From assembly GCA_965371785.1 (NCBI GenBank), contig CBDUZS010000004.1, positions 1,963-65,962 on the forward strand: 64,000 nt of DNA, given 5' to 3'. The DNA comes from an uncultured bacterium (GTDB lineage: Bacteria; Fermentibacterota; Fermentibacteria; Fermentibacterales; JCC-6). The notes beneath the pieces are model-generated. The model was not told the origin of the DNA. It saw only the letters and a program-made list of their open reading frames with translations, and did no database searches. Positions 5,074 to 47,503 of the stretch are shown one piece after another (the first letter of the stretch is position 1; each line of letters opens with the position of its first letter). The translations under genes and the position numbers were made by a program.

Positions 5074-5499
5074 ATGAAGAAGGAATTCAACCCCAGGATA
5101 ACCAGTTTTCTGTGTAAGTGGTGTTCTTACACGGGAGCGGACCTGGCTGGTACCAGCAGACTGCAGTATCCGACATCGATCATCCCCCTGATGGTGATGT
5201 GCTCCAGCAGGGTCGATCCGATTTTTCTCATCAAGGCGTTCCTGAACGGTTCCGATGGTGTCATGCTCGGAGGTTGTCACCCTGGAGACTGTCACTACGA
5301 AACAGGCAACTACCATGCGAGAAGAAGATTTGCGATCGTGAAGAGTGTTTTCGAATCCCTCGGGCTCGAGGCTGACAGGCTGAAGTTATCCTGGATATCC
5401 GCATCGGAGGGGCCGAAATTCGCCCGGGTTGCCAACGAGTTCACCGAAGAGATCATCAGGCTCGGCGAGAATCCGACACGTAAGAACATTTTCCTGTGA
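5074..5499 (+). CDS. mvhD: MvhD/FlxD-type [2Fe-2S] electron-transfer subunit (methyl-viologen-reducing hydrogenase delta subunit family)
   Basis: Hallmark CKWCSYTGADLAG ... CSSRVDP ... GCHPGDCHY motifs. AGGAG RBS before ATG 5074. 141 aa. Confidence 0.85.
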   Translation: MKKEFNPRITSFLCKWCSYTGADLAGTSRLQYPTSIIPLMVMCSSRVDPIFLIKAFLNGSDGVMLGGCHPGDCHYETGNYHARRRFAIVKSVFESLGLEADRLKLSWISASEGPKFARVANEFTEEIIRLGENPTRKNIFL

Positions 5500-5528
5500 A
5501 AGAGGCTGACAGTGCGGCGGAGGAGCTG

Positions 5529-27136: not shown

Positions 27137-27146
27137 GGCCAGCTCC

Positions 27147-29529: not shown

Positions 29530-30522
29530 TCAGTCCTCCATCAGCTTGATGACCCTTGCTTCGCGTACGCGGAGAACGCCATCGATCTGGTTCAGTTTCT
29601 CGATAATCCTGGGTGTACGACCCACTGCGCCATGCCCGGTTATCATGCCTACGAGTTTCGAGCCATTCTCGATAACATCGCAGAAGAGAACTCCTTCGAT
29701 GAAGAAGACCGTCGTGAAGATCGTCTGGATTGCGTCCTTGTCGATATCGACGATTATGTAGCTTGTCGTTCCCGGCTGCTTCAGAGCGCTTGCCCTGGCA
29801 CTTCTCTTTACCGCTTTCTCGTACACATCGATGAACTCGTTTACATCCCTGTCCAGTTTCGGTCTTTCTATCTGCGACAGGGAGGACACTTCGATGCCAT
29901 CCATGGCAGCGATTCGAGCGAACAGCTCCTTTATCTCATCCTGGGAGGATGCCTGGGCAAGGATGATGATATCGAAGTCACCTCTGACCGCCTCGCAGGT
30001 CTGGATACCATCCATCATGTAGAGATCGGTGAATATCTCCATGCTCCGGTCGGTATCCGTGATACGTATGGTGAGGTACGCACTGACCGATTCGCGTATT
30101 GCAGGTTCATCCGCCGATGTGCCATCCCTGCTCTCGACACCGGTTGTGCCCGGTGAGAGTTCATCGAGGGCACTCACCAGCTCGGATATCTCGAACGGTT
30201 TGTCGAGGTACCCGGTGTTGTGCTCGGAAAGCGCGGTAGCCATCAATCTTTCATCACCGAATCCCGTTATCACCAGCACTGGAAGATCCGGATACTGGTT
30301 CTTAATGACCTTGAGGATCTTCAGCCCGTCGATATCCGGCATGAAGATGTCGGTTACGAGGTAATCGTAGGTTACGCCCTCTTTCCTTGCCCTGTTGAGC
30401 TCGTGGATTGCCGAGATGCCATCGGGACAGGCAACTGCTGTGTAATCCTCCTGAGTGAGACCGATGGTGAGATTCCGCCTGATCTCGGCCTCGTCATCGA
30501 TAATCAGTACTCGGCCTTTCAA
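29530..30522 (-). CDS. Response regulator: receiver domain plus two C-terminal ACT-like domains
   Basis: VLIIDDE, DYLVTDIFMPDIDG and LVITGFG receiver motifs. Two C-terminal beta-alpha-beta-beta-alpha-beta repeats (YLTIRITD.. and YIIVDIDK..). No DNA-binding domain is evident. Confidence 0.6.
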   Translation of the reverse strand: MKGRVLIIDDEAEIRRNLTIGLTQEDYTAVACPDGISAIHELNRARKEGVTYDYLVTDIFMPDIDGLKILKVIKNQYPDLPVLVITGFGDERLMATALSEHNTGYLDKPFEISELVSALDELSPGTTGVESRDGTSADEPAIRESVSAYLTIRITDTDRSMEIFTDLYMMDGIQTCEAVRGDFDIIILAQASSQDEIKELFARIAAMDGIEVSSLSQIERPKLDRDVNEFIDVYEKAVKRSARASALKQPGTTSYIIVDIDKDAIQTIFTTVFFIEGVLFCDVIENGSKLVGMITGHGAVGRTPRIIEKLNQIDGVLRVREARVIKLMED

Positions 30523-30618: not shown

Positions 30619-32085
30619 CTACTGGTGTACGGCATCGGTAACATCCATTGCTTCTGCCAGATTGCTCCATCTTCCCGTATTCAGAAAGATGTTCATGGCT
30701 TTCGCAGCCGTTCGCCCATGACCCATTGCCAGGATCACCGTGGCTGCTCCAAGGACTATGTCTCCTCCCGCAAACACTCCTCTTACGGATGTCTGTCCGG
30801 TTTCCTCGTTAATGATAATCCCGCCCCACCTCGTAACCTCCAGCTCGGGGAATACACTGGGGACAAGAGGGTTGGGGCTGTTGCCGATTGCGACCAGAAC
30901 CGCATCCGTTTCGAGAATGTACTCGGAGCCCTCAATGGGAATCGGTCTTCTCCTGCCGGAGGAATCCGGTTCACCGAGTTCCATTCGAATGACTTCCATG
31001 CTCTTGACCCAGCCTGAGTCATCACCGATGAGCCGAACAGGATTGTTCAGGAGGTGGAACTCGATGCCCTCTTCCCGGGCATGGTGGATCTCCTCGAGCC
31101 TTGCAGGCATCTGTTCCTCCGCCCTCCTGTACACGATCAGCGAATGCTCTGCTCCAAGCCTGAGAGCTGTTCTGGCGCAGTCCATCGCCACGTTGCCGCC
31201 ACCGACGGTTACTACCTTTTTCGCTCGGAAGATGGGAGTGTCAGCGCGTGGAAACTCGTAAGCCTTCATGAGGTTCGCCCTGGTGAGGTACTCGTTGGCG
31301 GAGTACACTCCGAGAAGGTTCTCTCCAGGGACCTTCATGAACCTCGGAAGGCCCGCTCCCGTTGCGATGAAAACGGAATCGAATTGATCGATGAACACAT
31401 CCATCGGCGTTGTCATGCCTACAACGAAGTTGTACCTGAATTTGACACCGAGGCTCTCGAGGTAGTCGACTTCCTTCTGCACAATGGCCTTGGGAAGCCT
31501 GAACTCCGGGATGCCGTACACCAGCACGCCGCCAGCCTTGTGGAGAGCCTCGAAAACGGTAACCTCGTGACCGTTCTTCACGAGATCTCCCGCAACGGTC
31601 AGACCCGCAGGACCCGAACCGACAACCGCCACTGTCCTGCCGGTAGGTTTTGCCGGCTCGGGCAGCTCGAATCTGTTCTGCTCCCTTTCCCAGTCGGCGA
31701 GAAATCTTTCCAGTTTTCCTATCATCACCGAATCGCAGGGATTCTTTCTAGCCTTTCCGACCGTGCAGGTAAGCTGGCACTGTTCCTCCTGGGGGCAAAC
31801 TCTACCGCAAACTGCCGGCAGCAGATTCCCGTCCTTGAGGATGCGGACACCCTTCTGGAAGTCTCCCTCTTCGATCGCTCCGATGAACCCCGGGATGTCG
31901 ATCCTTACCGGGCAGCCATCGACACAGAACGGAATCTTGCATTGAAGGCACCTCTTTGCCTCCTGTATCGCCATTTCAGGGGTGTAGCCGAGAGGCACTT
32001 CCTTTACATTCTTCACCCTGTCCTCTGGAGCCTGTTCCGGCATGTCTACGGGTGGAATTGCGAGCCTTTCCTTTGCGCTCAGCAT
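30619..32085 (-). CDS. nfnB: NfnB / GltD-family NADPH-dependent FAD oxidoreductase subunit (NADH-dependent reduced ferredoxin:NADP+ oxidoreductase large subunit-like)
   Basis: CLQC..CVDGCP and CGRVCP Fe-S motifs. VAVVGSGPAGL and VTVGGGNVAMD dinucleotide motifs. The start overlaps nfnA by 7 nt. Confidence 0.75.
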   Translation of the reverse strand: MLSAKERLAIPPVDMPEQAPEDRVKNVKEVPLGYTPEMAIQEAKRCLQCKIPFCVDGCPVRIDIPGFIGAIEEGDFQKGVRILKDGNLLPAVCGRVCPQEEQCQLTCTVGKARKNPCDSVMIGKLERFLADWEREQNRFELPEPAKPTGRTVAVVGSGPAGLTVAGDLVKNGHEVTVFEALHKAGGVLVYGIPEFRLPKAIVQKEVDYLESLGVKFRYNFVVGMTTPMDVFIDQFDSVFIATGAGLPRFMKVPGENLLGVYSANEYLTRANLMKAYEFPRADTPIFRAKKVVTVGGGNVAMDCARTALRLGAEHSLIVYRRAEEQMPARLEEIHHAREEGIEFHLLNNPVRLIGDDSGWVKSMEVIRMELGEPDSSGRRRPIPIEGSEYILETDAVLVAIGNSPNPLVPSVFPELEVTRWGGIIINEETGQTSVRGVFAGGDIVLGAATVILAMGHGRTAAKAMNIFLNTGRWSNLAEAMDVTDAVHQ

Positions 32086-32939
32086 CCCTGATCACCTCCC
32101 TCGTTACACTTGCAGCCGCTTCGCGAGTAGTGATCCATGGCCTGTGATTCATGCTCGATGTATGAACTGAGCCTCAGTGTAAGCTCGTCGAAATCGACTC
32201 CGTGTCCGTCGAATTCAGGGCCGTCTACGCATGCGAATTTCGTCTCGCCGTTGACCGTGACGCGGCAGCAGCCGCACATGCCGGTACCGTCTATCATTAT
32301 CGGGTTCAGGCTCACTACCGTAGGGATACCGAGCTCCTTGGTGAGCAGACTTACGAATTTCATCATAACCGGGGGACCTATGGCAAACACCTGATGAATC
32401 TTCTCGCCCCGGTCCGAGACCATCTGGATTGCATCCGTGACAAGCCCCTTCATTCCGTAGCTTCCATCATCAGTGGTGATAATCACTTCGTCGCTGACAC
32501 CAGTCATCTCCTCTTCGAGGATAAGGAGATTCCGGGAACGGGCGCCGAGAATGCTGATAATCCTGTTGCCTGCCTCCTTGAGAGCCTTCGTTATCGGGTA
32601 CAGGGGAGCGTTGCCGATACCGCCTCCCACGCACAGAACGGTACCTACCTTCTCGATATGTGTTGCTTTGCCCAGAGGTCCGGTAACATCGGGTATGGAA
32701 TCACCCTCTTCGAGCCTGGACATCTGAACGGTGCTCTTCCCGACAGCCTGCACTACGAGCGTTATCGTTCCCTCATCGGGATCCGAATCAGCGATGGTGA
32801 GCGGGATTCGTTCCCCTTCTTCACATATTCTCACGATAACGAACTGACCCGGTTTTCTGTACCTGGCGACTTCAGGCGCGGTTATCCTGTACCTGTGGAT
32901 ATCCGGTCCGAGTATTTCCTTGGATACGATCACATGCAT
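32079..32939 (-). CDS. nfnA: NfnA / SudB-like FAD + [2Fe-2S] subunit (PyrK-like fold)
   Basis: The start is ATG 32939 (MHVIVSKE) with GGAGGTG RBS. The track's 32957 is rejected. Motifs CVGGGIGNAPL and CGCCRVTVNGETKFACVDGPEF. Confidence 0.75.
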   Translation of the reverse strand: MHVIVSKEILGPDIHRYRITAPEVARYRKPGQFVIVRICEEGERIPLTIADSDPDEGTITLVVQAVGKSTVQMSRLEEGDSIPDVTGPLGKATHIEKVGTVLCVGGGIGNAPLYPITKALKEAGNRIISILGARSRNLLILEEEMTGVSDEVIITTDDGSYGMKGLVTDAIQMVSDRGEKIHQVFAIGPPVMMKFVSLLTKELGIPTVVSLNPIMIDGTGMCGCCRVTVNGETKFACVDGPEFDGHGVDFDELTLRLSSYIEHESQAMDHYSRSGCKCNEGGDQGC

Positions 32940-33015
32940 ATCTGGGGCACCTCCCACAATGATGAATCACCGATCTTTCTCCGGTCGAGTGCGGGCTGGA
33001 AACAGAAAAAGACCG

Positions 33016-33039: not shown

Positions 33040-33099
33040 CAGTGTATGTAAATATCGAACAGGATCTCCTCCGTAAACGTTCATTAAAAGATGCGATTC

Positions 33100-33198: not shown

Positions 33199-33372
33199 GA
33201 ACGGATCTGCTTCGAGGATGGCTGTCTCTTGACCCGCCAGCGCCGTCGGGGCATCTACAGAGAGCGGCACCAGATCCTCACACACCATCCGGAAGGATCG
33301 ATATTGAGGGACAGGAATCTCGACCGCATAGCAGGCAAGCGGGGAACCGACCCGATACCCCTCTACTCGCTA

Positions 33373-36303
33373 ATGTCCAGAAGGGTGGGACGCATCCTGC
33401 TCGTATCCAGCCTGTACGACTCGTTCACCCTGGAGGAGGACGGCAGATTCACTGAAATCCTCTTCTCAGAGTACCTCTCACTCAACCTCCGCTATGCCCC
33501 CAGGGTTACCAGGGTCTCCACAGCCGAGGAGGCACTGGAACTTATTGGGAAGGAATTGTTCGACCTGGTCATCTCCATGGTAAGAGTGGGGTCCATGAAG
33601 ATCGAGCAGTTCAGCAGGGCGATCAAGGAGCTATGCCCGACCCTTCCCATTGTCGTGCTTGCGTACACTGCCAGGGACCTGGAGGTTCTCAGGGAGGCCG
33701 GAAGGCTGGAGTCCGTCGACAAAGCCTTCACCTGGCAGGGTGATGTCATGCTCTTCCTAGCCATTGTCAAATTGGTTGAGGACAGGCTTAACGTTGAGCA
33801 TGACTCGGAGATAGCAGGTGTGAAGTGTATCATCCTCGTCGAGGATTCCATCAGGTTCTGCTCCTCTTACATCCCCATGCTCTACACGGAGCTGATGGAG
33901 CAGACCCAGATACTCATGACCGATGGCGTTAACAATATGCAGAAGCTCATGCGCATGAGGGCACGCCCGAAAATTCTCCATGCAGAGACCTACGAACAGG
34001 CGCTGGACCTCTACCAGAGGTTCTCGAAGCATATCCTCGGCGTCATCCTTGACACCAGGTTCGAGCGGGAAGGAGCTGAGGATCCACATGCAGGCTTCGC
34101 CCTGGCCCGGGAGATAAGGATCGAGGACCCTGAATGTCCAATCCTCTTCCAGTCAACGGAAGAGGAGAACAGGACCGAAGCCCACAGGATGAATGCCGCC
34201 TTCATCGATAAGAACTCCCCTACGCTCCTGGCCGATCTGAGAGAGTTCATGAGGAGCTACCTCGGGTTCGGAGACTTCTTGTTCAGGAGCCCGGACGGCA
34301 GGGAGGAAGCCAGGGCAGCAGACATGAGGAGCCTGTATCACGCGGTCAGAGAGATCTCAGACGATAGTCTCCTTTACCATGCCAGAAGGAATGACTTTTC
34401 CACATGGTTGATGGCAAGGACCGAGTTTGACCTGGCACATGCGCTGAAGCCTCAGAAGGTGGAGGACTTCAAGTCGGTGGCCGACCTCAGGAACTACCTC
34501 CTCTCATCCCTGAAGGTCTGGAGGGAGAAGCACAGGGCAGGACAGGTGGAGGAGTTCTCGAATGAATCCTTCGATCTGGACACGGAGTTCGTGAAAATAG
34601 GCTCCGGGTCCCTTGGGGGGAAGGGCAGGGGGCTTGCCTTCGTGAACGCTCTGCTGAATGACTACCTCATCGACGAGAGGTTCCCGGACGTGAGCATCTC
34701 CATCCCTCCCACGGCTGTGATCGCCACTGATGTATTCGATAGCTTCATGGAAACGTCAGGATTGAAGGAGCTGGTTTTCGACCAGACCCTCGAAGAGAAG
34801 CTGAGCCCGTCAGGACGCGATTCCAGGGTGGCATCGGCCTTTGTCGAGACAGACCTTCCCGCCAAGGTCGTCAGGATACTCAAGGTGTTTCTGGAGAACG
34901 TCACCTATCCCATTGCAGTGCGCTCCTCCAGCCTCCTCGAAGATTCACCGGCTCAGCCTTTTGCCGGCATCTACAGCACGTACATGCTCCCGAACAACAG
35001 CTCCGATATAGCGGTGAGGCTGCACCAGCTCTGCGATGCAGTCAAGCTCGTTTACGCTTCAACCTTTTACTCCGATTCGGTCTCCTACATCGAGACAACT
35101 CCCAACAGGCTCGAAGAAGAGAGGATGGCGGTCGTCATACAGCAAGTCGTGGGTCAGGAGCACGGTGAAAGTTTCTATCCGAACCTGGCCGGTGTCGCGA
35201 GGTCATACAACTTCTATCCGCTGGAGGGCATGACGGAGGAAGACGGTGTAGTCTCCGTGGTCCTGGGGCTCGGCGGGACTGTAGTAGAGGGAGGGAAGTG
35301 CATCCGCTTCTCCCCCGCAGCACCTAAGAGGCTCTACCAGTTCTCGTCGACTGATGAATTCCTGAGGAACTCCCAGAGAGATTTCCTGGCTCTGAACCTC
35401 GGCGGGATCTCCGGAGAGCCAACCGTCAACCCGGGGGATGACCCGCACCTGGAGAAGCTTGACCTTGAACGTGCTCAGAAGGATGGCACACTTCTGCCTG
35501 TGGGCTCCGTATACTCGACAGACAACGACATGATAATCGACGGCACCTACCGTCCAGGGGTCAAGCTGGTGACCATGGCGGGCGTACTGAAGGGAGACAG
35601 CTTCCCCCTCGCCCCAGTGCTGGGGTTCCTGCTGAAGATGGGAAAGGCGGCGTTCTCCTGTGAAGTGGAGATCGAGTTTGCCGTGAACCTCCCGCAAGGC
35701 AGTGGCAGCGGAAGGGGGGACTTCGGCTTCCTGCAGATACGACCGATGGGATTCAGCACCGAGATGGGTCCCGATCTCTCAGAAGTGGATACCTCCAGAG
35801 CCATCTGCGTCTCGCACAACGTCTTGGGCTACGGCGCGGTGGAGGGTATCAGGGACATCATCTACGTACCCGGTGAGAGCTTCCCGAGGAGCATGTCCCT
35901 GAAGGTGGCTGGAGAGATCGAGCAGATCAACCGTATGCTGAAGAAGCTTGATCGGCATTCCCTGCTCATCGGTCCCGGCAGGTGGGGTAGTACCGACAGC
36001 TGGCTCGGCATTCCAGTGAAATGGTCCCAGATATCCACGGTGAGGTGCTTTGTCGAGACGCCCCTCGAGGACATGGACGTGATACCCTCCCAGGGCTCTC
36101 ATTTCTTCCAGAACATCACGTCTCTCGGCCTCGGCTATTTCACAGTCTCGAGGTCCGAAGTCAACCTCCTCGACACCAGATGGCTGAGTTCCATCGATGC
36201 GGTTTTCTCCACAGAACATGTGAGACACATCAGGCTCGATAAACCTCTGGAGATACTGATGGACCGCAAGGTCAGGATGGGCGTTATACTGGAGGGAATA
36301 TGA
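33373..36303 (+). CDS. Receiver-domain-fused PEP-utilizer-N (pyruvate phosphate dikinase N-terminal ATP-grasp, PPDK_N) protein with a conserved unknown C-terminal domain
   Basis: The start is ATG 33373 (MSRRVGRILLVSS). The track's start at 33091 runs across the relic/terminator region. Pseudo-REC, then a REC with ILVEDS .. GVILDTRF .. QSTEE .. IDKNSP. PPDK_N signature GKGRGLAF and VRSSSLLEDSPAQPFAGIY. C-terminal LLIGPGRWGSTDSWLGIP ... SQGSHFFQN. Confidence 0.7.
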   Translation: MSRRVGRILLVSSLYDSFTLEEDGRFTEILFSEYLSLNLRYAPRVTRVSTAEEALELIGKELFDLVISMVRVGSMKIEQFSRAIKELCPTLPIVVLAYTARDLEVLREAGRLESVDKAFTWQGDVMLFLAIVKLVEDRLNVEHDSEIAGVKCIILVEDSIRFCSSYIPMLYTELMEQTQILMTDGVNNMQKLMRMRARPKILHAETYEQALDLYQRFSKHILGVILDTRFEREGAEDPHAGFALAREIRIEDPECPILFQSTEEENRTEAHRMNAAFIDKNSPTLLADLREFMRSYLGFGDFLFRSPDGREEARAADMRSLYHAVREISDDSLLYHARRNDFSTWLMARTEFDLAHALKPQKVEDFKSVADLRNYLLSSLKVWREKHRAGQVEEFSNESFDLDTEFVKIGSGSLGGKGRGLAFVNALLNDYLIDERFPDVSISIPPTAVIATDVFDSFMETSGLKELVFDQTLEEKLSPSGRDSRVASAFVETDLPAKVVRILKVFLENVTYPIAVRSSSLLEDSPAQPFAGIYSTYMLPNNSSDIAVRLHQLCDAVKLVYASTFYSDSVSYIETTPNRLEEERMAVVIQQVVGQEHGESFYPNLAGVARSYNFYPLEGMTEEDGVVSVVLGLGGTVVEGGKCIRFSPAAPKRLYQFSSTDEFLRNSQRDFLALNLGGISGEPTVNPGDDPHLEKLDLERAQKDGTLLPVGSVYSTDNDMIIDGTYRPGVKLVTMAGVLKGDSFPLAPVLGFLLKMGKAAFSCEVEIEFAVNLPQGSGSGRGDFGFLQIRPMGFSTEMGPDLSEVDTSRAICVSHNVLGYGAVEGIRDIIYVPGESFPRSMSLKVAGEIEQINRMLKKLDRHSLLIGPGRWGSTDSWLGIPVKWSQISTVRCFVETPLEDMDVIPSQGSHFFQNITSLGLGYFTVSRSEVNLLDTRWLSSIDAVFSTEHVRHIRLDKPLEILMDRKVRMGVILEGI

Positions 36304-36399
36304 TCCCCCCTCCACTCCGTCGCCCCATCCGCTTGCTTACCTTCTGCTGAACACTGCCTGTTGCGATTGACATGAGGAGGCTGCTAAAATCAAATGGTC

Positions 36400-36498
36400 T
36401 TTTCATTCGATCCGCTCGAGATCAGACGATCTCTTGAGCATTACTCCTCTACCCGATCTTCCGTCAATCATCACTTTCACCGGATATTCGAGCCTGAT
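36400..36498 (+). repeat. ~100-nt direct repeat copy B, forming the genuine 3' end of the minus-strand gene 36403..39384
   Basis: See copy A; about 90% identity over ~95 nt. Confidence 0.7.
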
Positions 36499-39384
36499 GC
36501 GGCGCACATATTTCGTTTCCTCCACCGCAGGATTACAATCCAGCCAATCCCAGTCGATAGCATTGCCCTCCCGTACATGTGAGACCGAAAAGTAGCCAAC
36601 TCCGAGTGAGGTCATGTTCTGGAAGAAATGAGAGCCCTGAGAGGGTTCCACGTTCATATTTGTAAGGCTTACCTCGACAATCGAGGTCGCTCCGCAGATC
36701 TGGCTCCAGGTGACCGGTATACCCAGCCAGGAATCCGCTGATCCCCATCGACCGGGACCTATGAGGATGTAGGGAGTTCCAGCCGAGAACAGGCTGCTGT
36801 TCATTCGCGCTATCTCGACTGCGATATCCCGCGTGAGTGAAGCATCGAATGATTCCGGTCGAACGTAGACTATATCATGAATCGAATCGCTGACTCCGTT
36901 TCCGAGAACACTGTCACTCGTGCAGAACACCTGGTCCCTGTCAACGTCGCCGAGATCGACTTCGACCAGCTGCTCCGCCACGACCATCGGTCTGATCTGG
37001 AGAAGGGAGAATGTGGCCGGCAGCGGTTTTCTCCTGCCGAGTTCGACAGCGAATTCGATCTCTACCGGGCATCCCATCGCATGCTCACCCAGCTTCAGCA
37101 GCGTATCCGTAAGAGGGGCAAGCGGAAAGAGCTTGTTCTTGAGCACGTGGGCAAAGTTGATCACCCTTGGGCCTGCCCGGTTGATGCCGTCAACGATCAT
37201 GTCGTTATCGGCATCGTACGTGGAGGCAATGTAGTCGAGTGTCCCATCGGTTTCGGCGGAAGCAAGCTCCCGCGAAACCAGGAACTGATCTTCGTCTTCA
37301 ATGGATCTGTAGGTCGAATGATCCATGCTAATTGCGTAGAATTGCCTCTGGGAATCGTTGAGTGCGCTCCTGATCGTACCAAATTGCGGGAGGATTCTGG
37401 GATACTTCGGAGTGAACCTGAGGGATACCCCACCGTCAACGATTGTCTTCCCGAGCCCCAGGGCAACGTTTACAACTCCATCTTCGGGGTCAGCAGAACC
37501 TGTAGGATAGAAATTATACGAACGCCCCACTCCGGAGAAGTGCGGGTAGAATCCGCCGGGGAATTCGGATCCTGCCACTTCCTGTATCAGTATGGCCATC
37601 TTCTCCTCCTCGATCCTGTGATTCGTCGCCTCGATGTAGGATCGAGCAGCATGAAAGAAAGTGGATGCGTATACGAATTTAATCGAGGCTGCCAGATCGT
37701 TGAACCTCTTGTCGAAGGATATCGAATTATTAGGCAGCATCTTCGTGGTATAAATACCAGCAAATGGTTGACATAGCGCATCTTCCAGAAGACTGGAAGA
37801 TCTAACGGCAAGAGGTGTTCTCACCTCACCCAGGAAATCTCTCAGATCTCCCAGAATGACCGGGGGAAGATCTGCATTCAGAAACTGCCGAATTATGGAA
37901 AGATCTCGAGACGCATCCACAGCGAAACTGAGAAGGTCGTTCTGCATGATGAACTTGTCGAAGATATCGCTCGTTAGCACCAGTGTGCGTGGAATGGTCA
38001 CTGTCACATCCCTGAAACGACTTCCGTCGAAATTCAGGGCGAGTACGCGATCCAGGAATGCAAGGCCACGTCCCTTCCCTCCGATGGAGCCTCTGCCGAT
38101 TCTGCTGAACTGGGCATACTCCCGGTAGAATGTTCTACTGTAGGGAACGATCCTGCCCCTGTAGCTCTCCCTGCGGTATTCCCGGACAATACGGCTTGCT
38201 TCCCTGCGCAGTTCATCCCCGGCTGCACCGGAATCCTCTGTAAGGATATCCAGCCTGTCCGCTAGTTCGAGCTCCGTGTGTGATCTGAGCCATCTCGTCA
38301 TCTCTCCGGAACGGAGAGTAGAGGATACCGCATTCCCCGGGAGTTTATCGAGAGCAATACTCAGTGCTTCCAGGTTCGATACGCTGGTGATGCTCCTGCC
38401 GGAAGTATCTTTGAAAACAAGGCTTCCAAGACAGAACTTGCCTGCGAACTGTTCCCCTATATCTCTGAGCAGTGTTGGCGAACTTTTGGAAACGAATCCG
38501 GTCCCGAGTTCTTCCGCAATCAGTGAGGCATCCTCCTCGCTTGACTGTATCGATACCGGCATGCCCGGAAACCTGGCGCGGACGTATTCTATCAGATGGC
38601 GTCCCGCATCCGGATCGAGAACACCATCTCTCGGGAAACGAAGATCGGTAAAGAGCCCCAGGAGGTGTTTCCCATAATTGTCTACAAGCTGGATGGCTTC
38701 TTCGTAACAGGTGGCGAGAAGAAGTTTTGGCCTGGCCATTGCTCTCAATCTCCTGGAGGAATAGGAGACGTGCCCCTTCACTATCTCGCTTGTCTTGTCC
38801 CGTATCATCCCCAGCAGGCGGTGAATGTATCTCGAGTAGAAGAGGACGTTGTCCTCGACGAGAAGAAGGCTCAGGACACCACCCTGGCCGCTGTCGTGTG
38901 CAGCGTTCTTCATATCCTCTGCGAGCTGGATGATTCCGAGCAGAACTTCGCCATCGCCCTGCCAGAGGAAGACCCAGTCTACGGCATTGGTGTGATCCAG
39001 TGTCATGAACCTCTGCAGCTCGTACGTGTTGTAGGCAAGAACGGCAACGGGTGTGTCCGGTTTGAGTTCCTTCACCTTCCTGCCGAGAGTCACAGAATCC
39101 ATACCCTCTATCTGCATCATGCACACGACCAGATCGAATGGCTCACTCTCCAGCATCTCGAGAGCCTTCTCTCCCCCGGATACCTGGCTGATCGACGGGA
39201 AGTACCCCATCTCGTTTCTGCTGTACCACTGGGCGAGGAGATCGTTGAGTCGCCCATCCTCCTCGAGCATGAAGAAGTCGTACAGGCTGGAGACGAAGAG
39301 CACTTTTCTCACCTTGAACGGCATGAGCTGATGCAGCCTCGAGACGAATCTGCTGTCCAGCTGGAGGGAATCTGCCCCTGGCAC
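36403..39384 (-). CDS. Receiver-domain-fused PPDK_N (PEP/pyruvate-binding ATP-grasp) protein, convergent paralog
   Basis: Pseudo-REC plus REC (LLLVEDN .. LFTDLRF .. SIQSSEED .. VSKSSP). GKGRGLAFLD and VRSSSLLEDALCQPFAGIY. C-terminal ILIGPGRWGSADSWLGIP ... SQGSHFFQN. Confidence 0.7.
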   Translation of the reverse strand: MPGADSLQLDSRFVSRLHQLMPFKVRKVLFVSSLYDFFMLEEDGRLNDLLAQWYSRNEMGYFPSISQVSGGEKALEMLESEPFDLVVCMMQIEGMDSVTLGRKVKELKPDTPVAVLAYNTYELQRFMTLDHTNAVDWVFLWQGDGEVLLGIIQLAEDMKNAAHDSGQGGVLSLLLVEDNVLFYSRYIHRLLGMIRDKTSEIVKGHVSYSSRRLRAMARPKLLLATCYEEAIQLVDNYGKHLLGLFTDLRFPRDGVLDPDAGRHLIEYVRARFPGMPVSIQSSEEDASLIAEELGTGFVSKSSPTLLRDIGEQFAGKFCLGSLVFKDTSGRSITSVSNLEALSIALDKLPGNAVSSTLRSGEMTRWLRSHTELELADRLDILTEDSGAAGDELRREASRIVREYRRESYRGRIVPYSRTFYREYAQFSRIGRGSIGGKGRGLAFLDRVLALNFDGSRFRDVTVTIPRTLVLTSDIFDKFIMQNDLLSFAVDASRDLSIIRQFLNADLPPVILGDLRDFLGEVRTPLAVRSSSLLEDALCQPFAGIYTTKMLPNNSISFDKRFNDLAASIKFVYASTFFHAARSYIEATNHRIEEEKMAILIQEVAGSEFPGGFYPHFSGVGRSYNFYPTGSADPEDGVVNVALGLGKTIVDGGVSLRFTPKYPRILPQFGTIRSALNDSQRQFYAISMDHSTYRSIEDEDQFLVSRELASAETDGTLDYIASTYDADNDMIVDGINRAGPRVINFAHVLKNKLFPLAPLTDTLLKLGEHAMGCPVEIEFAVELGRRKPLPATFSLLQIRPMVVAEQLVEVDLGDVDRDQVFCTSDSVLGNGVSDSIHDIVYVRPESFDASLTRDIAVEIARMNSSLFSAGTPYILIGPGRWGSADSWLGIPVTWSQICGATSIVEVSLTNMNVEPSQGSHFFQNMTSLGVGYFSVSHVREGNAIDWDWLDCNPAVEETKYVRRIRLEYPVKVMIDGRSGRGVMLKRSSDLERIE

Positions 39385-39618
39385 TGTGCTGCTCCATCAA
39401 AGGTTCGGGAAATGTCGCGTTCTACTGCAGTCTGAAGCATACTGTAAGGCAGGAATTGTGTCATTGCCGCCGACACTCCCTGCCGATGTTCCTGCATGTG
39501 AAATCACCAACGTGATATTCACTTGACGAGAGTATGGTCACTGGAATAGGCTACTGCATCTGTCAGAATATACTGTTGGTTCAACCGTTCACATTCACCA
39601 GGAGGAGGTCACGGGTAA

Positions 39619-40971
<1,353 letters not shown>

Positions 40972-41000
40972 CAGGCCCGGAATCGGAACCGAGGGGCACG

Positions 41001-41033
41001 GAGTAACCGTGCCCCTTTCTCTTGGACCAGGGA
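41001..41033 (+). terminator. Rho-independent terminator after gdhA
   Basis: GGGGCACGG-AGTAA-CCGTGCCCC followed by TTTCTCTT. Confidence 0.7.
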
Positions 41034-41073
41034 CAGCGCCTGGCAAAGAGCTGTTCAGAGAAAAGGACTCGAG

Positions 41074-41472
41074 ATGAAAATGGAAATTCTGTTCCCCGGC
41101 GGCAAGAGAGTGGACGCCCTGTTCGATGGTTTCACGGTGCAGACGGATCAACCCGTCAGCTCGGGCGGGGAAAACTCTGCACCGGCGCCATTCGATCTCT
41201 TCCTGGCATCGATAGGCACGTGTGCAGGCATATACATTCTCTCCTTCTGCCAGCAGAGGAGTATACCAACTGAGGAAATCAGACTCGTGCAGAACAACGG
41301 CAGAAATCCCGAAACCGGGTTCCTTGAGATAGGAATCGATATAGTGGTTCCATCCGGTTTCCCCGAGAAGTACCGAAACGCCCTGATCAGATCGGCAGAA
41401 CTCTGTGCCGTGAAGAAACACATAACCGATCAACTCATCAGATTCTCGATTGAAACCAGCACGAAGGAATGA
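41074..41472 (+). CDS. OsmC/Ohr-family protein
   Basis: 132 aa with two conserved Cys (GTCAG ... ELCAV) in OsmC-like spacing. Confidence 0.6.
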   Translation: MKMEILFPGGKRVDALFDGFTVQTDQPVSSGGENSAPAPFDLFLASIGTCAGIYILSFCQQRSIPTEEIRLVQNNGRNPETGFLEIGIDIVVPSGFPEKYRNALIRSAELCAVKKHITDQLIRFSIETSTKE

Positions 41473-41504
41473 CAGGCTGTAAGATCTGTAACTGCCGGGT
41501 CGTT

Positions 41505-43862
41505 CTATCTGGTCAGGTACCCGATTGCCGAGTCGGTATTTCCATCCATGACAACCGACAGGCTTGCTCCATCGGACTCCATGGATACCTGAACTACCTT
41601 GATCTGTTTTGCCAGGTGCTTCGCGCCGGGAACGAGCTTGCACAGCCTGTTCCGTGACTTCATGAAGAAATCCTCGTTGAATATTATGCCTGGTTCGTCC
41701 GGGTACAGCGGCAGGTATATGATTCCCGCTTCGACCAGGTCCTGGAAGAAATGTGTTCCGAAAGACAGATCGGGCATGTACCCCTTCTTCATCCTGGCGA
41801 CTTCGATAAGCATTGCGGTGTTGTTGATGTCGGCGTAACCGACCTTGACGCCGAGTTTGATGTCTCCCCTGCTCCCCCACCTGCCGGGCCCAATCAGTAT
41901 GAATTTCCGCTGAGGCAGAACCTTGTTCAGCCTACCGACAACGTGTCCCACTTCAATGAGTTCTTCGAGACTTTCCAGCCTGTCGTACTCCACAGGGTCA
42001 ACGTAGACGACGAATTCGATGCCTTCACAGATGCCGGATGTAATGTACTTACCGGCGGTGAATACTATGTCCTCCTCGGGAACATCGTCCGGGACGACCA
42101 CCTCTCCGATTTCTCCGGAATAGCTCTGTGGTCTGCACTGGAGCAGGTAGGGAACCTGGATGTCATCGGCGTATGCGAATTCGACGTCTACGGGAACACC
42201 TATTTCCTTCTCCAGTATCTGGAGTATCGTCTGAATCAGCAGAGGGAACGGGCTTCTCGAGAGCAGGCGAGAGAATGTAATGACCGTTTCCTCGTTCTCC
42301 ACGTTGAAAAGGCTTCCCATCGGCGGAGAGAGGTTACCATCTTTGTATAGTGATATGATGTAAGAGAGAACGGGATAACTGCTTCCATGTGCCTTTACGA
42401 GATCGTCGAAGAGAACGGTCTCGAACCTGCGGTTTTCGAGATTGATCACGTCGATATGCTTCTGGGCATATCGAATCGTTTCCTCGGGTGTGACATTCAC
42501 TCTCAGACCCGGCTGTCCGGGGCAGAGAAGCATCGGAAAATCCTGACCCGTCCTGTCCACTGCCCTGGTTCCAAGGCCTGTAACCAGCCTTACTATTCCG
42601 TCCTCGCGCCTGATCCTGGGAGACCACCGGAACTCGTTCCTGCTGAAAGCTACACCTGCAAAAGCGGGGAAGTAGTACTTGCCGACCCGTTTTCCGACGA
42701 CTTCCTGGATGATGATTCCCATTTCCTCGTTGAAATCGAGAAGGCCGCGCTCCCTTCTGTACTCTATCGGGTCGGGACTGAACACACTTGCATAGACTTC
42801 CATTATCGCGTCTGCAAGCGCTTCCAGCCTTTCCATCTTGCTTCCGACGTTGGCGACGAAGAGGCTCTTGTATTTACCCGCAAAGGCAGACCCTACACTG
42901 TCTTCGAGCAGACTGGACGAGCGGACAACGAGCGGTACGTTTCCGAACTGATCGAGCGCAACGTTGAGCCCCGACATTATTCCCGCTGGCAGCAGAGAGC
43001 TCTTGAAGATCTGCCGAAGCAGACTGTACTCCTTTCTAAGCTCATCCGGATCGGAATATTTTATCGACAACAGTTCTTCGAGTGCATTGTGGTGGATGAA
43101 TTCGAAGATGGCATCACTGGATATGTACCATGTTTTGGGGACCTTCAGGTTCCTGAGAACGACGTTGTCTTTCCTGGCGGAATAGGATTCCAGTATCTTT
43201 TTCGCCCTGAACAGACCCGCTGCCTTTCCCCCGAGTCTGCCGCTGCCCGTGGCCGGGCCGATCGTGTGGTCGAGAACCTCGATGAAGTCAATAATTCTTA
43301 CACGGTTCTTGGTCGTGTTGATGTATGTGAGATCGGTACTGAACAGCCTCCTGATGAGAGCGACTCTGATTCCCATGCTCTCTTCCTTGTCGAGCACCTT
43401 GTGTGATTCGGGAAGAAGGGAGAACCTGTCGAGAGCCGCACTGAGCTCGACCAGAGGTACATCTTTCTGCTCTACCAGGATGGAGAGGAACCGTGTGCTT
43501 TCGTACCGGAGCCAGCGGGTCAGCATTGCGGATATCTCGCTCGAGGACAGTTCCTCCTCTGCGATCCTGAAAACCTCGCTGGTGAAGAACTCGATTGCGG
43601 AATGGTTGATCCTCGGCATCGGCTGGTTTTCTCCCCAGGCCGCACCCGTTTCGTAATCGTCAGGACTGTATACCAGCAGGCGTTCCATGACGTCGCTCAT
43701 CTTCTTCACGTTACGTTTGAACAGGTAGTTCATCATCTTCCGGCCAAGACGTTTCATGAGAATGGGATTGGTTTCGCTGAGAAGGCTGACGATCACCTTC
43801 CATTCAGGATCACTTCTCTCAGTGTTTTTCTTCCTGATATCGCGTTTGTCGGCATCGTGCAT
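41505..43862 (-). CDS. PPDK_N (PEP/pyruvate-binding ATP-grasp) domain protein without receiver domains; third paralog
   Basis: GGKAAGLFRA and VRSSSLLEDSVGSAFAGKY. C-terminal ILIGPGRWGSRGDIKLGV ... SFGTHFFQD. 785 aa. Confidence 0.7.
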   Translation of the reverse strand: MHDADKRDIRKKNTERSDPEWKVIVSLLSETNPILMKRLGRKMMNYLFKRNVKKMSDVMERLLVYSPDDYETGAAWGENQPMPRINHSAIEFFTSEVFRIAEEELSSSEISAMLTRWLRYESTRFLSILVEQKDVPLVELSAALDRFSLLPESHKVLDKEESMGIRVALIRRLFSTDLTYINTTKNRVRIIDFIEVLDHTIGPATGSGRLGGKAAGLFRAKKILESYSARKDNVVLRNLKVPKTWYISSDAIFEFIHHNALEELLSIKYSDPDELRKEYSLLRQIFKSSLLPAGIMSGLNVALDQFGNVPLVVRSSSLLEDSVGSAFAGKYKSLFVANVGSKMERLEALADAIMEVYASVFSPDPIEYRRERGLLDFNEEMGIIIQEVVGKRVGKYYFPAFAGVAFSRNEFRWSPRIRREDGIVRLVTGLGTRAVDRTGQDFPMLLCPGQPGLRVNVTPEETIRYAQKHIDVINLENRRFETVLFDDLVKAHGSSYPVLSYIISLYKDGNLSPPMGSLFNVENEETVITFSRLLSRSPFPLLIQTILQILEKEIGVPVDVEFAYADDIQVPYLLQCRPQSYSGEIGEVVVPDDVPEEDIVFTAGKYITSGICEGIEFVVYVDPVEYDRLESLEELIEVGHVVGRLNKVLPQRKFILIGPGRWGSRGDIKLGVKVGYADINNTAMLIEVARMKKGYMPDLSFGTHFFQDLVEAGIIYLPLYPDEPGIIFNEDFFMKSRNRLCKLVPGAKHLAKQIKVVQVSMESDGASLSVVMDGNTDSAIGYLTR

Positions 43863-44063: not shown

Positions 44064-45197
44064 ATGAAACTCGAGGAATTTCAGGCGAAATCACTTTTCA
44101 AGGCATCCGGAATTCCCGTTCCGGACGGCATTATGGTGACCACGGCAGACGATGCCGGAAAGGCAGCGGAAAAAATCGGCTGCCCCGTCGTCGTCAAGGC
44201 TCAGGTCCAGGCGGGCGGACGGGGCAAGGCGGGTGGAGTCAAAATCGCAAAGACGCCCGACGAGGCCGCTTCCCTTGCTGAAGACATCCTTGGAATGTCG
44301 ATCAAGGGTTTCCCGGTGGAGAGGCTCCTCATCGACCCCGCAGTTTCCATACAGGATGAGTTCTACGTAGGAATCACAATCGACAGAAGAAAGAAGGGGC
44401 CTGTCCTGATGGCATCCCCGGCCGGAGGTGTGGATATCGAGAAGGTGGCTAGAGAAACACCGGAAAAGATTTTCTTCCACACCATACATCCCATTCATGG
44501 CCTCAGACTCTTCGAAGCGAAAAAGGTTGCGTTCAAACTTTTTTCTGAGAAGAAGCAGGCGCTCACGGCTGCATCTATCATGACCAGGCTCTGGCAGTGC
44601 TTCAGGGACTCACATGCCTCTCTTGCAGAGATAAACCCACTGGTTCGACTCACGGACGGTTCACTTCTGGCAATCGATGCCAAAATCGTGCTAGATGACA
44701 ACGCGTTGTACTTGAATCCGGACCTCGAGAATATGAGACTCCCCTCCCTGGATGAACGGAAGGAACTCGAGGCAAAGGAGCACGGGTTGAGCTTCGTCAA
44801 GCTCGACGGTGAGATTGGCTGCATGGTAAACGGCGCGGGGCTTGCCATGGCTACAATGGACCTCATCAAGCACATGGGTGGTACACCGGCCAATTTCCTC
44901 GACATCGGAGGCAGCTCGAACCCGGACAAGGTTATCAAGGCAATGGAACTGCTCGTATCCGATCCCAACGTGAAGGCCATCTTCATAAACGTCTTCGGAG
45001 GAATCACCAGATGTGATGACGTGGCCAGGGGTCTCGTAACAGCGCTCGAGGTTGTCGGAACCGATCTTCCACTGGTAGTAAGGCTTACGGGAACAAACGG
45101 GAAAGAGGGAAGAGCGATTCTTGCCGATGCGGGAATCGAAGCATTCACCGACATGATGGAAGGCGCTGAGAAGGTCATCGGCTTGACCGTCTCATGA
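44064..45197 (+). CDS. sucC: Succinyl-CoA synthetase (ADP/GDP-forming) beta subunit
   Basis: Strong N-terminal match to SucC (EFQAKSLF.., VVKAQVQAGGRGKAGGVK). GGAGGGG RBS. Confidence 0.9.
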   Translation: MKLEEFQAKSLFKASGIPVPDGIMVTTADDAGKAAEKIGCPVVVKAQVQAGGRGKAGGVKIAKTPDEAASLAEDILGMSIKGFPVERLLIDPAVSIQDEFYVGITIDRRKKGPVLMASPAGGVDIEKVARETPEKIFFHTIHPIHGLRLFEAKKVAFKLFSEKKQALTAASIMTRLWQCFRDSHASLAEINPLVRLTDGSLLAIDAKIVLDDNALYLNPDLENMRLPSLDERKELEAKEHGLSFVKLDGEIGCMVNGAGLAMATMDLIKHMGGTPANFLDIGGSSNPDKVIKAMELLVSDPNVKAIFINVFGGITRCDDVARGLVTALEVVGTDLPLVVRLTGTNGKEGRAILADAGIEAFTDMMEGAEKVIGLTVS

Positions 45198-45220
45198 GCC
45201 GGGTCTGAAGGGAAATACAA

Positions 45221-46096
45221 GTGAGCATTCTAATAGATGAGAATACGAGAGTCCTCGTTCAGGGACTCGGGAGAGACGGATCCTTTCACGCCCAGCAGAT
45301 GCTCGACTACGGAACAAAGATCGTTTCGGGTGTGCATCCCGGCAAAGGCGGCTCGACAGTCGCATCCTTTCCGGTCTTCAACACCTGCACCGAGGCCCTA
45401 GAGAGCACCGGCGCGGAATGCAGCATCATTTTCGTACCTGCTGCATTCGCAGCGGACGCTATCCTCGAGGCTGCTAACGCCGGAATCAGACTCATCGTAT
45501 CCGTAAGCGAAGGAATTCCCATTCTCACGATGACCGAAGTCGTTCACGAACTCGATTCACTCGGGGTATCTCTCCTCGGACCGAATTGCCCCGGGTTGAT
45601 CTCCCCGGGCAAGTCGAAAGTCGGGATAATGCCCGGAAGCATCTTCCGCAGGGGAAACATCGGCGTAGTTTCGAGAAGCGGAACTCTTACCTACGAAGTA
45701 GTAGACCACCTCACAGCCGCCGGGCTCGGCCAGTCGACCGCGATAGGCATGGGTGGAGATCCCGTTGTCGGTCTTAAATTCATCGAATACCTGCAGCTGT
45801 TCGAGGAGGATCCCGAAACGGATGCCATCGTAATGGTAGGTGAAATCGGCGGAACCGACGAGGAAGATGCCGCTGACTTTGCAGGGCAAAACCTGTCCAA
45901 GCCGGTGGTGGGCTTCATCGTCGGCAGAAGTGCGCCTCCCGGCAAACGTATGGGTCATGCGGGAGCAATAGTCTCCGGTGGAACCGGCACTGCAGAGAAC
46001 AAAGTAGAAGCCATGGAGAGAAACGGCATTCCCGTTGCCGAAACGATAGTGGATATCGTGGATCTCCTGAAGCAGAGAATTGGAGGTTCCAATTGA
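45221..46096 (+). CDS. sucD: Succinyl-CoA synthetase alpha subunit
   Basis: [31 protein letters not shown] and GIGGDP motifs. A phosphohistidine loop is present. Confidence 0.9.
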
Positions 46097-46938
46097 GAGA
46101 GCTGGATGTAGCACTGATCACATCCGCGATGAAGGACCTGTCCATCTCCTGCAACCTCTTTCTCGGCGACGATGTGAAGGACTCGCTCCGGGAAGCCTAC
46201 GAGAACGAGGAATCGCCTCTCGGCAGAGAGATTCTCGGGGTTGTACTGGAGAACCACGATATCGCCGCGGAAAAGAGTATGCCCCTGTGCCAGGACTGCG
46301 GGGTTGCGGTGGTATTCATCGACATCGGTCAGGATGTTCATCTCACTGGCGGTAACCTGGAAGACGCAATCAATGAGGGTGTCAGACGGGGATACTCAGA
46401 GGGCTATCTCAGGAAATCAATGGTATCTGATCCCGCCATCGACAGGAAGAACACGGGAGACAACACGCCGGCCGTGATCCATACCAGAATCGTTCCCGGG
46501 GAAAAGATCAGGCTTCGCTTCGCGCCGAAGGGCGGAGGTGCCGAGAACATGAGCGAGGTCAGGATGATGACCGCAGCAGACGGCATCGAGGGCATAAAGG
46601 ACTTCGTAGTGGACAGGGTGAAGAGATCGGGAGGGAACCCTTGTCCTCCGATGGTTGTTGGAGTCGGGATAGGGGGCAATTTCGAGAAGTGTGCACTCCT
46701 TGCAAAGGAATCTCTTTTCAGGACCCTGGGAGAGCACAACCCCGATCCGAGATACGCAGACGCCGAGAGGGAAATCCTCGATAGAGTGAACAAGCTGGGA
46801 ATTGGTCCACAGGGCCTGGGCGGACGAACAACAGCGCTTGCCGTGAACATCGAGTACATGCCATGCCATATTGCCTGCATGCCGGTAGCCGTGAACATAC
46901 AGTGCCATGCTCACCGGCACGCTGAGATAGAGATATAG
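46093..46938 (+). CDS. Class I fumarate hydratase / Fe-S hydro-lyase alpha (N-terminal catalytic) subunit
   Basis: CQDCG ... PKGGGAEN ... GVGIGG motifs of the FumA/TtdA-alpha family. The ATG overlaps the sucD stop. Confidence 0.75.
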
Positions 46939-46948
46939 GAGGCGCCCA

Positions 46949-47503
46949 ATGAAGACATTCGAGCTCACAACACCCCTGACCACCGAACAGCTCTCCGAGC
47001 TTCAGGTAGGCGACAAGGTTCTTCTCTCCGGTGAAGTGTTCACCGCAAGGGATGCGGCACACAAAAGGCTTGTCACACTGATTGAGGAAGGCAAGGAGCT
47101 TCCATTCGATCTCGAAGGCGCGGTGATCTACTTCGTGGGTCCGGCACCTTCCCGACCCGGGCAGGTGATGAACTCGGCTGGTCCAACGACCAGTTACCGG
47201 ATGGACTCTTTTACCCCTCTTCTCATGGACCATGGTCTCAAAGGAACGATCGGCAAGGGCTCGAGATCGCAGGAGGTCAGGCAAGCGATTGTTCGCAACG
47301 GCGGTGTGTACTTCGGCGCTGTTGGCGGGGCCGCTGCAGGAATAGCTTCAACCGTGAAGGAAGCAGAAGTAATAGCGTACGAAGACCTCGGTCCTGAAGC
47401 TGTCAGACGGCTCGTAGTAGAGAAAATGCCCCTCTTCGTAATCAATGACGTTCACGGGGGAGACCTCTTCGAGATCGGCGTATCACAGTACTGTTGTGAT
47501 TGA
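46949..47503 (+). CDS. Class I fumarate hydratase / Fe-S hydro-lyase beta (C-terminal) subunit
   Basis: GTIGKGSRS and VYFGAVGGAAA motifs of the FumB/TtdB-beta family. Confidence 0.75.
   Translation: MKTFELTTPLTTEQLSELQVGDKVLLSGEVFTARDAAHKRLVTLIEEGKELPFDLEGAVIYFVGPAPSRPGQVMNSAGPTTSYRMDSFTPLLMDHGLKGTIGKGSRSQEVRQAIVRNGGVYFGAVGGAAAGIASTVKEAEVIAYEDLGPEAVRRLVVEKMPLFVINDVHGGDLFEIGVSQYCCD

Follow-up and report, generated by a model that had tools for sequence, protein, structure and literature searches.

Introduction

What is the function of three large paralogous proteins which share the ATP-grasp domain of the dikinases, begin in two cases with receiver domains, and are encoded around a gene for glutamate dehydrogenase (GDH)? 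The question is raised by a stretch of 64,000 nucleotides (hereafter the window) from an uncultured bacterium of the Fermentibacterota (contig CBDUZS010000004.1 of assembly GCA_965371785.1), in which the long-type genes A and B and the short-type gene C lie between positions 33304 and 43862. The family to which they belong is a part of the dikinase superfamily that is reduced to an ATP-grasp domain and a probable, diverged swivel domain, often carries receivers that would gate it, and is tightly coupled to GDH.

GDH connects carbon metabolism with that of nitrogen, and its post-translational control is poorly understood in most bacteria. The family is present in more than 12 phyla, beside GDH with very high fidelity and with its paralogs matched to those of GDH, and half of it carries a two-component receiver; its members have what a phosphotransfer device driven by ATP would need. 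Clustering at 50% identity gives at least 2,300 clusters, and databases contain thousands of members, which are named 'histidine kinase', 'PEP/pyruvate-binding domain-containing protein', 'phosphoenolpyruvate synthase', 'pyruvate, water dikinase' or 'CheY-like chemotaxis protein'; no relatives were found in the viral contigs searched.

Three paralogous proteins with an intact ATP-grasp domain

All three genes, which an earlier note on this DNA had delineated, are present as open reading frames. Gene A is on the forward strand and ends at 36303; its start is most likely the TTG codon at 33304 (999 aa), 69 nt upstream of the ATG at 33373 (976 aa), because both the 95%-identical public protein P0001 and the conserved N-terminal stretch of the family, R.L..IAG.R, match the longer form. 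The mechanical open reading frame reaches as far as an ATG at 33091 (1070 aa); homologs favour the TTG. Residues of A are numbered here on the 976-aa form. Gene B (36403..39384, reverse strand, 993 aa) has the same architecture as A, that is, a pseudo-receiver (REC1), a receiver (REC2), a DUF5752-like linker, a PPDK_N ATP-grasp domain and a swivel-like C-terminal domain. Gene C (41505..43862, reverse strand, 785 aa) is without receiver, and its helical N-terminal region is followed by PPDK_N and the swivel-like domain. A and B are convergent and separated by 99 bp, and a spacer of 234 bp lies between B and the GDH gene, which is read in the divergent direction. By alignment the three proteins are paralogs, A being 42% identical to B and 29% identical to C; C is identical to protein P0121 of public assemblies.

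The PPDK_N family (PF01326) matches all three proteins: A at 34588..35757 (E=1.9e-37), B over residues 433-805 (E=1e-35) and C over residues 209-594, corresponding to nt 42081..43238 of the reverse strand (E=1.2e-52). The motifs of the nucleotide site in A, namely GGK417, VRSSSLLED524 (with R517, SSS and LED524) followed by FAG, E766-I-E768-F-A and LQ788-I-R790-P, can be aligned with the corresponding motifs in E. coli PpsA and in a PPDK encoded at one of the related loci (L044). Five motifs are invariant in A, B and C, that is GGK(417), VRSSSLLED(516-524), FAG, IGPGRWGS(866-873) and G.HFFQ(908-913), and those of the ATP-grasp domain are invariant throughout the long and short subfamilies; B is itself a row of the family alignment and keeps the key residues. 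Judged from these residues, the ATP-grasp domain is intact in all three proteins, with the nucleotide domain that characterizes the dikinase superfamily, in agreement with the earlier claim of three such paralogs with invariant motifs.

Which dikinase these proteins could be is a different matter. Some automatic annotations make them ordinary phosphoenolpyruvate (PEP) synthases or PPDKs, in line with their database names and with partial matches to the PEP synthase models of NCBIfam. These matches are confined to the ATP-grasp part and reach 25-67 bits, against cut-offs of 600-1000 (598-1063 for the PEP synthase/PPDK equivalogs); a PEP-utilizers_C TIM barrel is missing. We consider this explanation extremely improbable. 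The models of PigC/RedH and rifampin phosphotransferase likewise match the ATP-grasp part only (25-67 bits for the whole group of models, whose cut-offs are about 600-1300; 29-39 bits against 999 for the rifampin phosphotransferase model NF041857), and PRK05849 is also matched weakly and partially through the ATP-grasp.

The best explanation is that A, B and C belong to a widespread branch of the PEP synthase/PPDK/rifampin-phosphotransferase superfamily which retains only the ATP-grasp and a much-diverged swivel. They differ from PEP synthase and PPDK in that they have no TIM barrel, carry SQG[ST]HFFQ[ND] in place of the motif GGxTSHAAI, and possess a second invariant motif, GPGRWGS..D. In rifampin phosphotransferase (RPH; PDB 5hv1) a large rifampin-binding domain separates the two modules, and PF00391 recognises the canonical His motif. 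The window proteins have neither feature; in the AlphaFold model no rifampin-binding domain is found between the ATP-grasp and the swivel-like domain. What they have instead is receivers and a DUF5752-like linker, besides their linkage to GDH. Enzyme I of the phosphotransferase system (PTS), as well as EI-Ntr, is charged by PEP on a TIM barrel and not by ATP on an ATP-grasp, and hhalign detected no sequence similarity between PTS Enzyme I and the window proteins.

A C-terminal domain in the place of the swivel

The C-terminal domain of about 180 residues is common to A (35758..36300, forward strand), B and C (residues 600-785, nt 41508..42065, reverse strand). It occupies the position where dikinases carry their swivel domain and is preceded in A by a tether (residues 791-800) that is modelled with low confidence (pLDDT 63), in an AlphaFold model of full-length A with a mean pLDDT of 84 and a pTM of 0.68. 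The 181 residues that follow the ATP-grasp form a single small alpha/beta domain in this model, and no Pfam match to PF00391 or PEP-utilizers_C was obtained in A, B or C. Since about 180 residues without TIM barrel are all that follows the ATP-grasp, these proteins are not plain PEP synthases; that candidate was rejected, because the barrel is absent and there is no room for one, and the earlier note was right to set them apart from PEP synthase homologs.

The same note held that the phosphohistidine swivel is lacking. The literal GGxTSHAAI is indeed missing, but the conclusion about chemistry is probably wrong. In the model the domain consists of a hairpin, a helix, the strand LLIGPG, a short helix, a strand, a loop, a His at the N-terminus of a helix, and a strand, and this order of elements around the invariant G-[ST]-H mirrors the canonical layout ILV...aIVT-GGxTSH-AAIvAR-iPavv. 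The invariant histidine of SQG[ST]HFFQ[ND], H910 in the SQGSHFFQN of A and H704 in the GTH704FFQD of C, is thus a candidate equivalent of the catalytic phospho-His, and the assignment as a swivel is made credible by the position of the domain together with the order of its elements.

The hexapeptide IGPGRW (residues 866-871 of A) is also common to the V3 loops of HIV-1 gp120, which were the best PDB matches of the family profile (E 0.17-1) and are due to chance.

It could be argued that such proteins have no catalytic activity and are nucleotide sensors or scaffolds, in which the ATP-grasp would only sense ATP or AMP, the swivel-like domain would have turned into a binding module, and the protein would control GDH allosterically or assist its assembly. 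Neither the catalytic ATP-grasp motifs nor the G-[ST]-H vary between phyla or between the two subfamilies, which is more than sensing usually needs, and we therefore regard this explanation as quite unlikely.

Two receivers, one of them intact, in the long type

The long-type proteins begin with two receiver folds of different quality. REC1 (33385..33747 in A, forward strand) fails as a receiver, as neither the acidic pair nor the phospho-Asp is found in the alignment: S12 and S13 replace the former and M69 the latter, both in an alignment of 47 homologs and in comparison with the receiver of FleR. REC2 (33817..34263) keeps E157, D158, the phospho-acceptor D227, S261 and K280, which are invariant or nearly so in the same 47 homologs from several phyla; it also has a long insertion in alpha1 and a beta-hairpin after D227. 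In the AlphaFold model the key residues are located at the C-terminal ends of beta1, beta3, beta4 and beta5, as in receivers generally. When the REC2 profile was compared with the PDB, only receiver domains were matched, weakly (RssB, E=0.03), and the best Foldseek matches of the full-length model were tandem receivers of the PleD type (E about 2e-8). On alignment and model, REC2 is thus a receiver with acidic pocket, Asp, Ser and Lys in place, and the degenerate-then-intact order that had been described for A and B is borne out, including the conserved aspartate.

The likeness to PleD-type regulators lies in a tandem of receiver folds, of which one can be phosphorylated and the other is a degenerate adaptor, with an enzyme domain after them. 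Here the pseudo-receiver comes first, the reverse of the order in PleD, and the output is a pair of ATP-grasp and swivel, whereas that of PleD is GGDEF. After REC2 comes a helical linker domain (34264..34587 in A) which in part matches DUF5752 (PF19027, cut-off 23; 25.4 bits in a scan of the linker by itself) and whose core residues W345, L346 and L354 recur in the N-terminal region of C in the alignment of the three paralogs. No HisKA/DHp or HATPase_c domain was matched by Pfam in A, B or C.

Detection of the two receivers is uneven. The Response_reg model recognises only REC1 (29.7 bits in A, over residues 40-108, and 32.9 bits in B, over residues 56-119, against a cut-off of 30.2); REC2 reaches 17.6 bits (E=0.004) when scanned alone and is missed in scans of the whole protein. 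This bears on what had been published. The earlier note saw in these genes its best candidate for an undescribed system, a view that has to be given up, because REC-PPDK_N is already present in two censuses of response regulators and the family is so abundant in databases. One census lists the architecture (PMC5847659); the other, of 2015, counts it as Response_reg~PPDK_N, with Asp-less receivers in 18 of 18 cases from Bacteroidetes, Acidobacteria and Spirochaetes (PMC4395418). The passages concerned describe the output as PPDK and connect it with plant C4 metabolism, and within these passages the second intact receiver, the swivel-like domain and the linkage to GDH do not appear (PMC5847659, PMC4395418). 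The receivers were presumably scored as Asp-less because only REC1 is detectable with Pfam; the presence of a second, intact receiver corrects the view that they are purely Asp-less. Full-text literature searches returned these two census mentions only, and neither a functional study nor a mention of the GDH link was found.

Glutamate dehydrogenase is the conserved neighbour of the long type

The gene that lies between B and C (39619..40971, forward strand) encodes a GDH of 450 aa and of the GdhA type (Pfam ELFV_dehydrog, E=2e-82). The earlier note had read the neighbourhood from other local genes, which do exist, and had missed this one, which is the decisive context. The first two distant homologs that were looked up both had a GDH gene adjoining. 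At least 595 relatives were obtained in a scan of one genome per GTDB species; the best 80 belong to Fermentibacterota, Eisenbacteria, Acidobacteriota, Myxococcota, Gemmatimonadota, Fibrobacterota, Zixibacteria, Ignavibacteria/Bacteroidota, Calditrichia, Spirochaetes, Desulfobacterales, KSB1, Actinomycetota and others.

The long-type set consisted of 82 non-duplicate loci from distinct species and more than 12 phyla, each with 8-kb flanks. A GDH gene is found within 8 kb in 59 of them and directly adjacent (within 600 bp) in 47, where it is upstream on the same strand in 26 cases, downstream on the same strand in 11, convergent in 7, divergent in 2 and the subject of an overlapping call in 1. 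Given one or two GDH genes in a genome of several megabases, fewer than 1% of such spans of 16-19 kb would contain one by chance. Moreover, all-against-all clustering of the open reading frames of the 82 loci revealed GDH as the only conserved neighbour; the real family that came next, an oxidoreductase similar to NfnAB/SudAB, recurred in 5. We regard the coupling of the family to GDH as close to certain.

The short type, and function without a receiver

The short type, to which C belongs and which is a large family in its own right, is linked to GDH as well. Among 80 metagenome loci, the flanks of 61 contain a gene of the ELFV dehydrogenase family, which is within 750 bp in 35; dereplication at 90% nucleotide identity reduces the set to 67, of which 51 retain the linkage, and when only clusters whose flanks reach 3 kb or more on each side are counted the proportion is 31 of 33. 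The partner is either a GDH of the GdhA type or a different type of 428 aa. At locus L122, for instance, the GDH gene ends 43 bp before the short-type gene.

This distribution bears on the possibility of a self-contained phosphorelay, in which the swivel His, loaded by the ATP-grasp, would phosphorylate Asp227 of REC2 in the same protein; a short form would use the REC2 of a long one. Such a protein would unite an unorthodox histidine kinase with a response regulator, and once phosphorylated it would bind GDH and modulate it. His-to-Asp transfer is the native chemistry of receivers, no histidine kinase is conserved nearby, and many members are called 'histidine kinase' by NCBI; in addition, long and short forms often co-occur, and fusions exist. 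In 32 of the 80 short-type loci, L122 among them, the short form nevertheless has GDH as its sole companion, the long form being absent from the surrounding 8 kb, and because short forms occur with GDH in this way the core function cannot require a receiver. Furthermore, the usual docking partners of receivers are helical DHp or HPt domains and not swivel domains. A relay of this kind is very unlikely in our judgement.

The fusions are found in P0241, P0242 and P0243 (1523-1654 aa), where two units of PPDK_N and swivel are joined; P0243 ends in a nucleotidyltransferase domain (NTP_transf_2). The best 150 of 2,355 representative clusters include no protein in which the C-terminal domain is joined to GDH; the longest proteins are the double-unit ones. 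At L122 (7554-10748) the short-type protein is longer by about 150-170 aa at the N-terminus as well as at the C-terminus, and these additions have no match in Pfam.

A second gene recurs beside part of the short-type loci. It encodes a calcineurin-like phosphoesterase of 284 aa (Metallophos, PF00149), lies about 400-470 bp downstream in convergent orientation, and is present in 24 of the 80 loci (L126-L168); a Metallophos gene is also present at L079 (2248-3090). The phosphoesterase is a candidate phosphatase partner and would fit a cycle of reversible phosphorylation.

Paired paralogs and the question of the acceptor

Many loci are 'GDH islands'. In several Ignavibacteriales-like genomes GDH and long-type genes are interleaved, in the order GDH (446 aa), long, GDH (453 aa), long, GDH (415 aa); the island of L079 reads short, GDH, long, GDH, long, GDH. 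The 'a' GDHs of these islands group together across genomes, as do the long-type proteins that adjoin them, and the same is true of the 'b' pair. Pairwise identities of the GDHs and of the adjoining long-type proteins are correlated (Spearman 0.73, for 45 pairs that are not independent of each other). This pairing of paralogs is the weightiest reason to prefer a protein-specific relation over a purely metabolic one.

The metabolic counterpart would be a small-molecule dikinase, whose swivel His would pass the phosphate to a metabolite related to GDH (glutamate, 2-oxoglutarate, an amide or ammonia-derived compound, or the nicotinamide cofactor) that GDH supplies or consumes. Such an enzyme would resemble rifampin phosphotransferase, glucan water dikinase or the L-glutamine kinase Cj1418 of Campylobacter, and the other TIM-barrel-less dikinases that are known do act on small molecules or glucans. 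It is in keeping with this that the models of PigC, RedH, rifampin phosphotransferase and PRK05849 are matched weakly and in part by the ATP-grasp; the DUF5752-like helical domain and insertions of about 70 residues in the ATP-grasp could form a binding site, and the GDH linkage is equally compatible. On the other side, no substrate-binding domain like that of RPH or PEP synthase is recognisable, and receiver-fused enzymes usually make signals or modify proteins and do not serve bulk metabolism. Nor does a metabolite as acceptor explain why each GDH paralog of the interleaved arrays has its own co-diverging long-type partner, or why the family pairs with two unrelated GDH classes. For these reasons we consider it rather unlikely. 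If the target were nonetheless a metabolite, the linkage to GDH would narrow the search for the substrate of this large 'PEP/pyruvate-binding domain-containing protein' family, which is at present mis-annotated as histidine kinase, PEP synthase or CheY-like protein.

A proposed mechanism

The mechanism that we propose starts with the binding of ATP by the ATP-grasp, as its conserved motifs suggest. The invariant swivel histidine (H910 in A, H704 in C) would then take the beta-phosphoryl group, yielding AMP and Pi; this phospho-His chemistry is suggested by what is known of the homologous enzymes PEP synthase, rifampin phosphotransferase and glucan water dikinase. As no substrate domain is present, the tethered swivel would deliver the phosphoryl group to an acceptor outside the same polypeptide. 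The most likely acceptor or target would be the GDH protein of the adjoining gene, as the linkage, the partnership with two GDH classes and the co-divergence suggest, and the family would then be made of post-translational controllers of GDH. In A and B, control would run from the receiver to the enzyme: phosphorylation of Asp227 of REC2 would gate the catalytic part, and REC1 would serve as an adaptor, by analogy with PleD. The kinase of REC2 would be encoded elsewhere, and C would act without receiver input or in complex with long forms.

We hold the chances to be evenly balanced for the package as a whole, that is, for an ATP-driven His-swivel phosphotransferase, gated by receivers in A and B, which acts on or with GDH. 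That the GDH protein is itself the phosphoryl acceptor is possible but doubtful. An equally tentative suggestion is that these proteins are 'GDH dikinases', His-swivel enzymes which phosphorylate GDH and so switch it on or off, with a two-component input in the long forms and reversal by the Metallophos protein in some lineages. The transfer from Enzyme I to HPr is a precedent for a swivel His that serves a protein. AceK, the kinase/phosphatase of isocitrate dehydrogenase, is a dedicated modifier of one dehydrogenase of central metabolism and is encoded beside metabolic genes; the analogy concerns function only, as AceK has an unrelated fold and chemistry, and we claim no homology.

Several observations weigh against this proposal. 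Of the long-type loci with good flanks, about one in five lacks a GDH gene within 8 kb, and gene linkage fits an action on a substrate or product of GDH equally well. The Metallophos gene occurs in a single subclade and is missing from the window. No histidine kinase family is conserved near the members in the 82 long-type and 80 short-type loci; orphan response regulators are common, and an unlinked kinase does not exclude membership among them. As regards the C-terminal domain, Pfam gives no link to PF00391 even when the regions are scanned separately, a profile search of the PDB returned chance matches only, Foldseek found nothing at E<=0.001, and hhalign against E. coli PpsA, PtsI and PPDK gave probabilities below 1%. 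The proposed equivalence of H910 to the catalytic His derives from the order of the structural elements and not from a residue-level superposition.

Should GDH prove to be the target, a textbook enzyme would acquire a new regulatory principle and dikinase chemistry a new type of acceptor. The family would contain the first enzymes of the dikinase type with a metabolic enzyme as acceptor, and it would represent a widespread hidden layer in the control of nitrogen and carbon metabolism. A lead, which is not evidence, may come from Bacteroides thetaiotaomicron: Baggio and Morrison (1996) reportedly found that one or more trans-acting genes downstream of gdhA are needed for GdhA activity, and the segment is said to be about 3 kb, the size of a long-type gene; a member of the family might be the gene in question. 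A search for Bacteroides homologs, seeded with a protein from a 'Bacteroidia' metagenome-assembled genome, gave Ignavibacteriales-like sequences only.

Other genes of the window

The two-component genes in the vicinity had been put forward as partners of A, B and C, and none of them holds up as such in tblastn searches of related loci. The kinase at 21460 was found in 0 of 82 long-type loci and 0 of 162 related loci, the sigma-54 regulator at 20112 in 0 of 82 and in 0-2 of 162, and the REC-ACT protein in 1 of 82 and in 0-1 of 162. The last of these (29530..30522, reverse strand) is an orphan regulator, a well-formed receiver (Response_reg, 89.9 bits) fused to a match to the AsnC/Lrp ligand-binding domain (RAM/ACT-like), and it was rejected as a part of the module on account of its recurrence in one related locus only.

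An OsmC-like gene (41074..41472, forward strand; Pfam OsmC) is located between the GDH gene and C. It was found in 0 of 83 related loci by tblastn and is not a conserved part of the module. Next to A is a pair of genes similar to NfnAB/SudAB (30619..32957, reverse strand), which encode a GltD-like subunit with Fer4_20 and Pyr_redox_2 domains and a FAD/NAD subunit of the DHODB type. The pair is present in 5-7 of the 82 long-type and 10-13 of the 80 short-type loci, and stands beside the GDH module in L084 and L004; at 5-13 loci it was rejected as a conserved neighbour. It may supply NADPH to GDH.

Further upstream (23462..28925, reverse strand), a fusion protein of 1244 aa with 2Fe-2S, GltD-like flavoprotein, 4Fe-4S and molybdopterin-oxidoreductase domains is encoded together with a NuoF-like subunit (Complex1_51K); the two look like a large soluble formate or NAD(P)H oxidoreductase, possibly an electron-bifurcating one. 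On the other side, divergent from C, are the succinyl-CoA synthetase genes sucC (by Pfam) and sucD (from sequence), followed by genes whose products, judging from sequence, look like fumarate hydratase subunits (44064..47503, forward strand). SucC and SucD were found in 0 of 83 related loci by tblastn. Scans for Rfam families, tRNAs, promoters and terminators, made on the window and on the region of the paralogs, gave nothing above background. Outside the window, the long-type gene of L085, a locus which also has a short-type gene and GDH, is flanked by two 464-aa proteins with TPR repeats (944-2338 and 5440-6834), an arrangement not seen elsewhere. With GDH, the NfnAB-like pair, SucCD and the fumarase-like genes, the region of the window around the three paralogs is a central-metabolism cluster.

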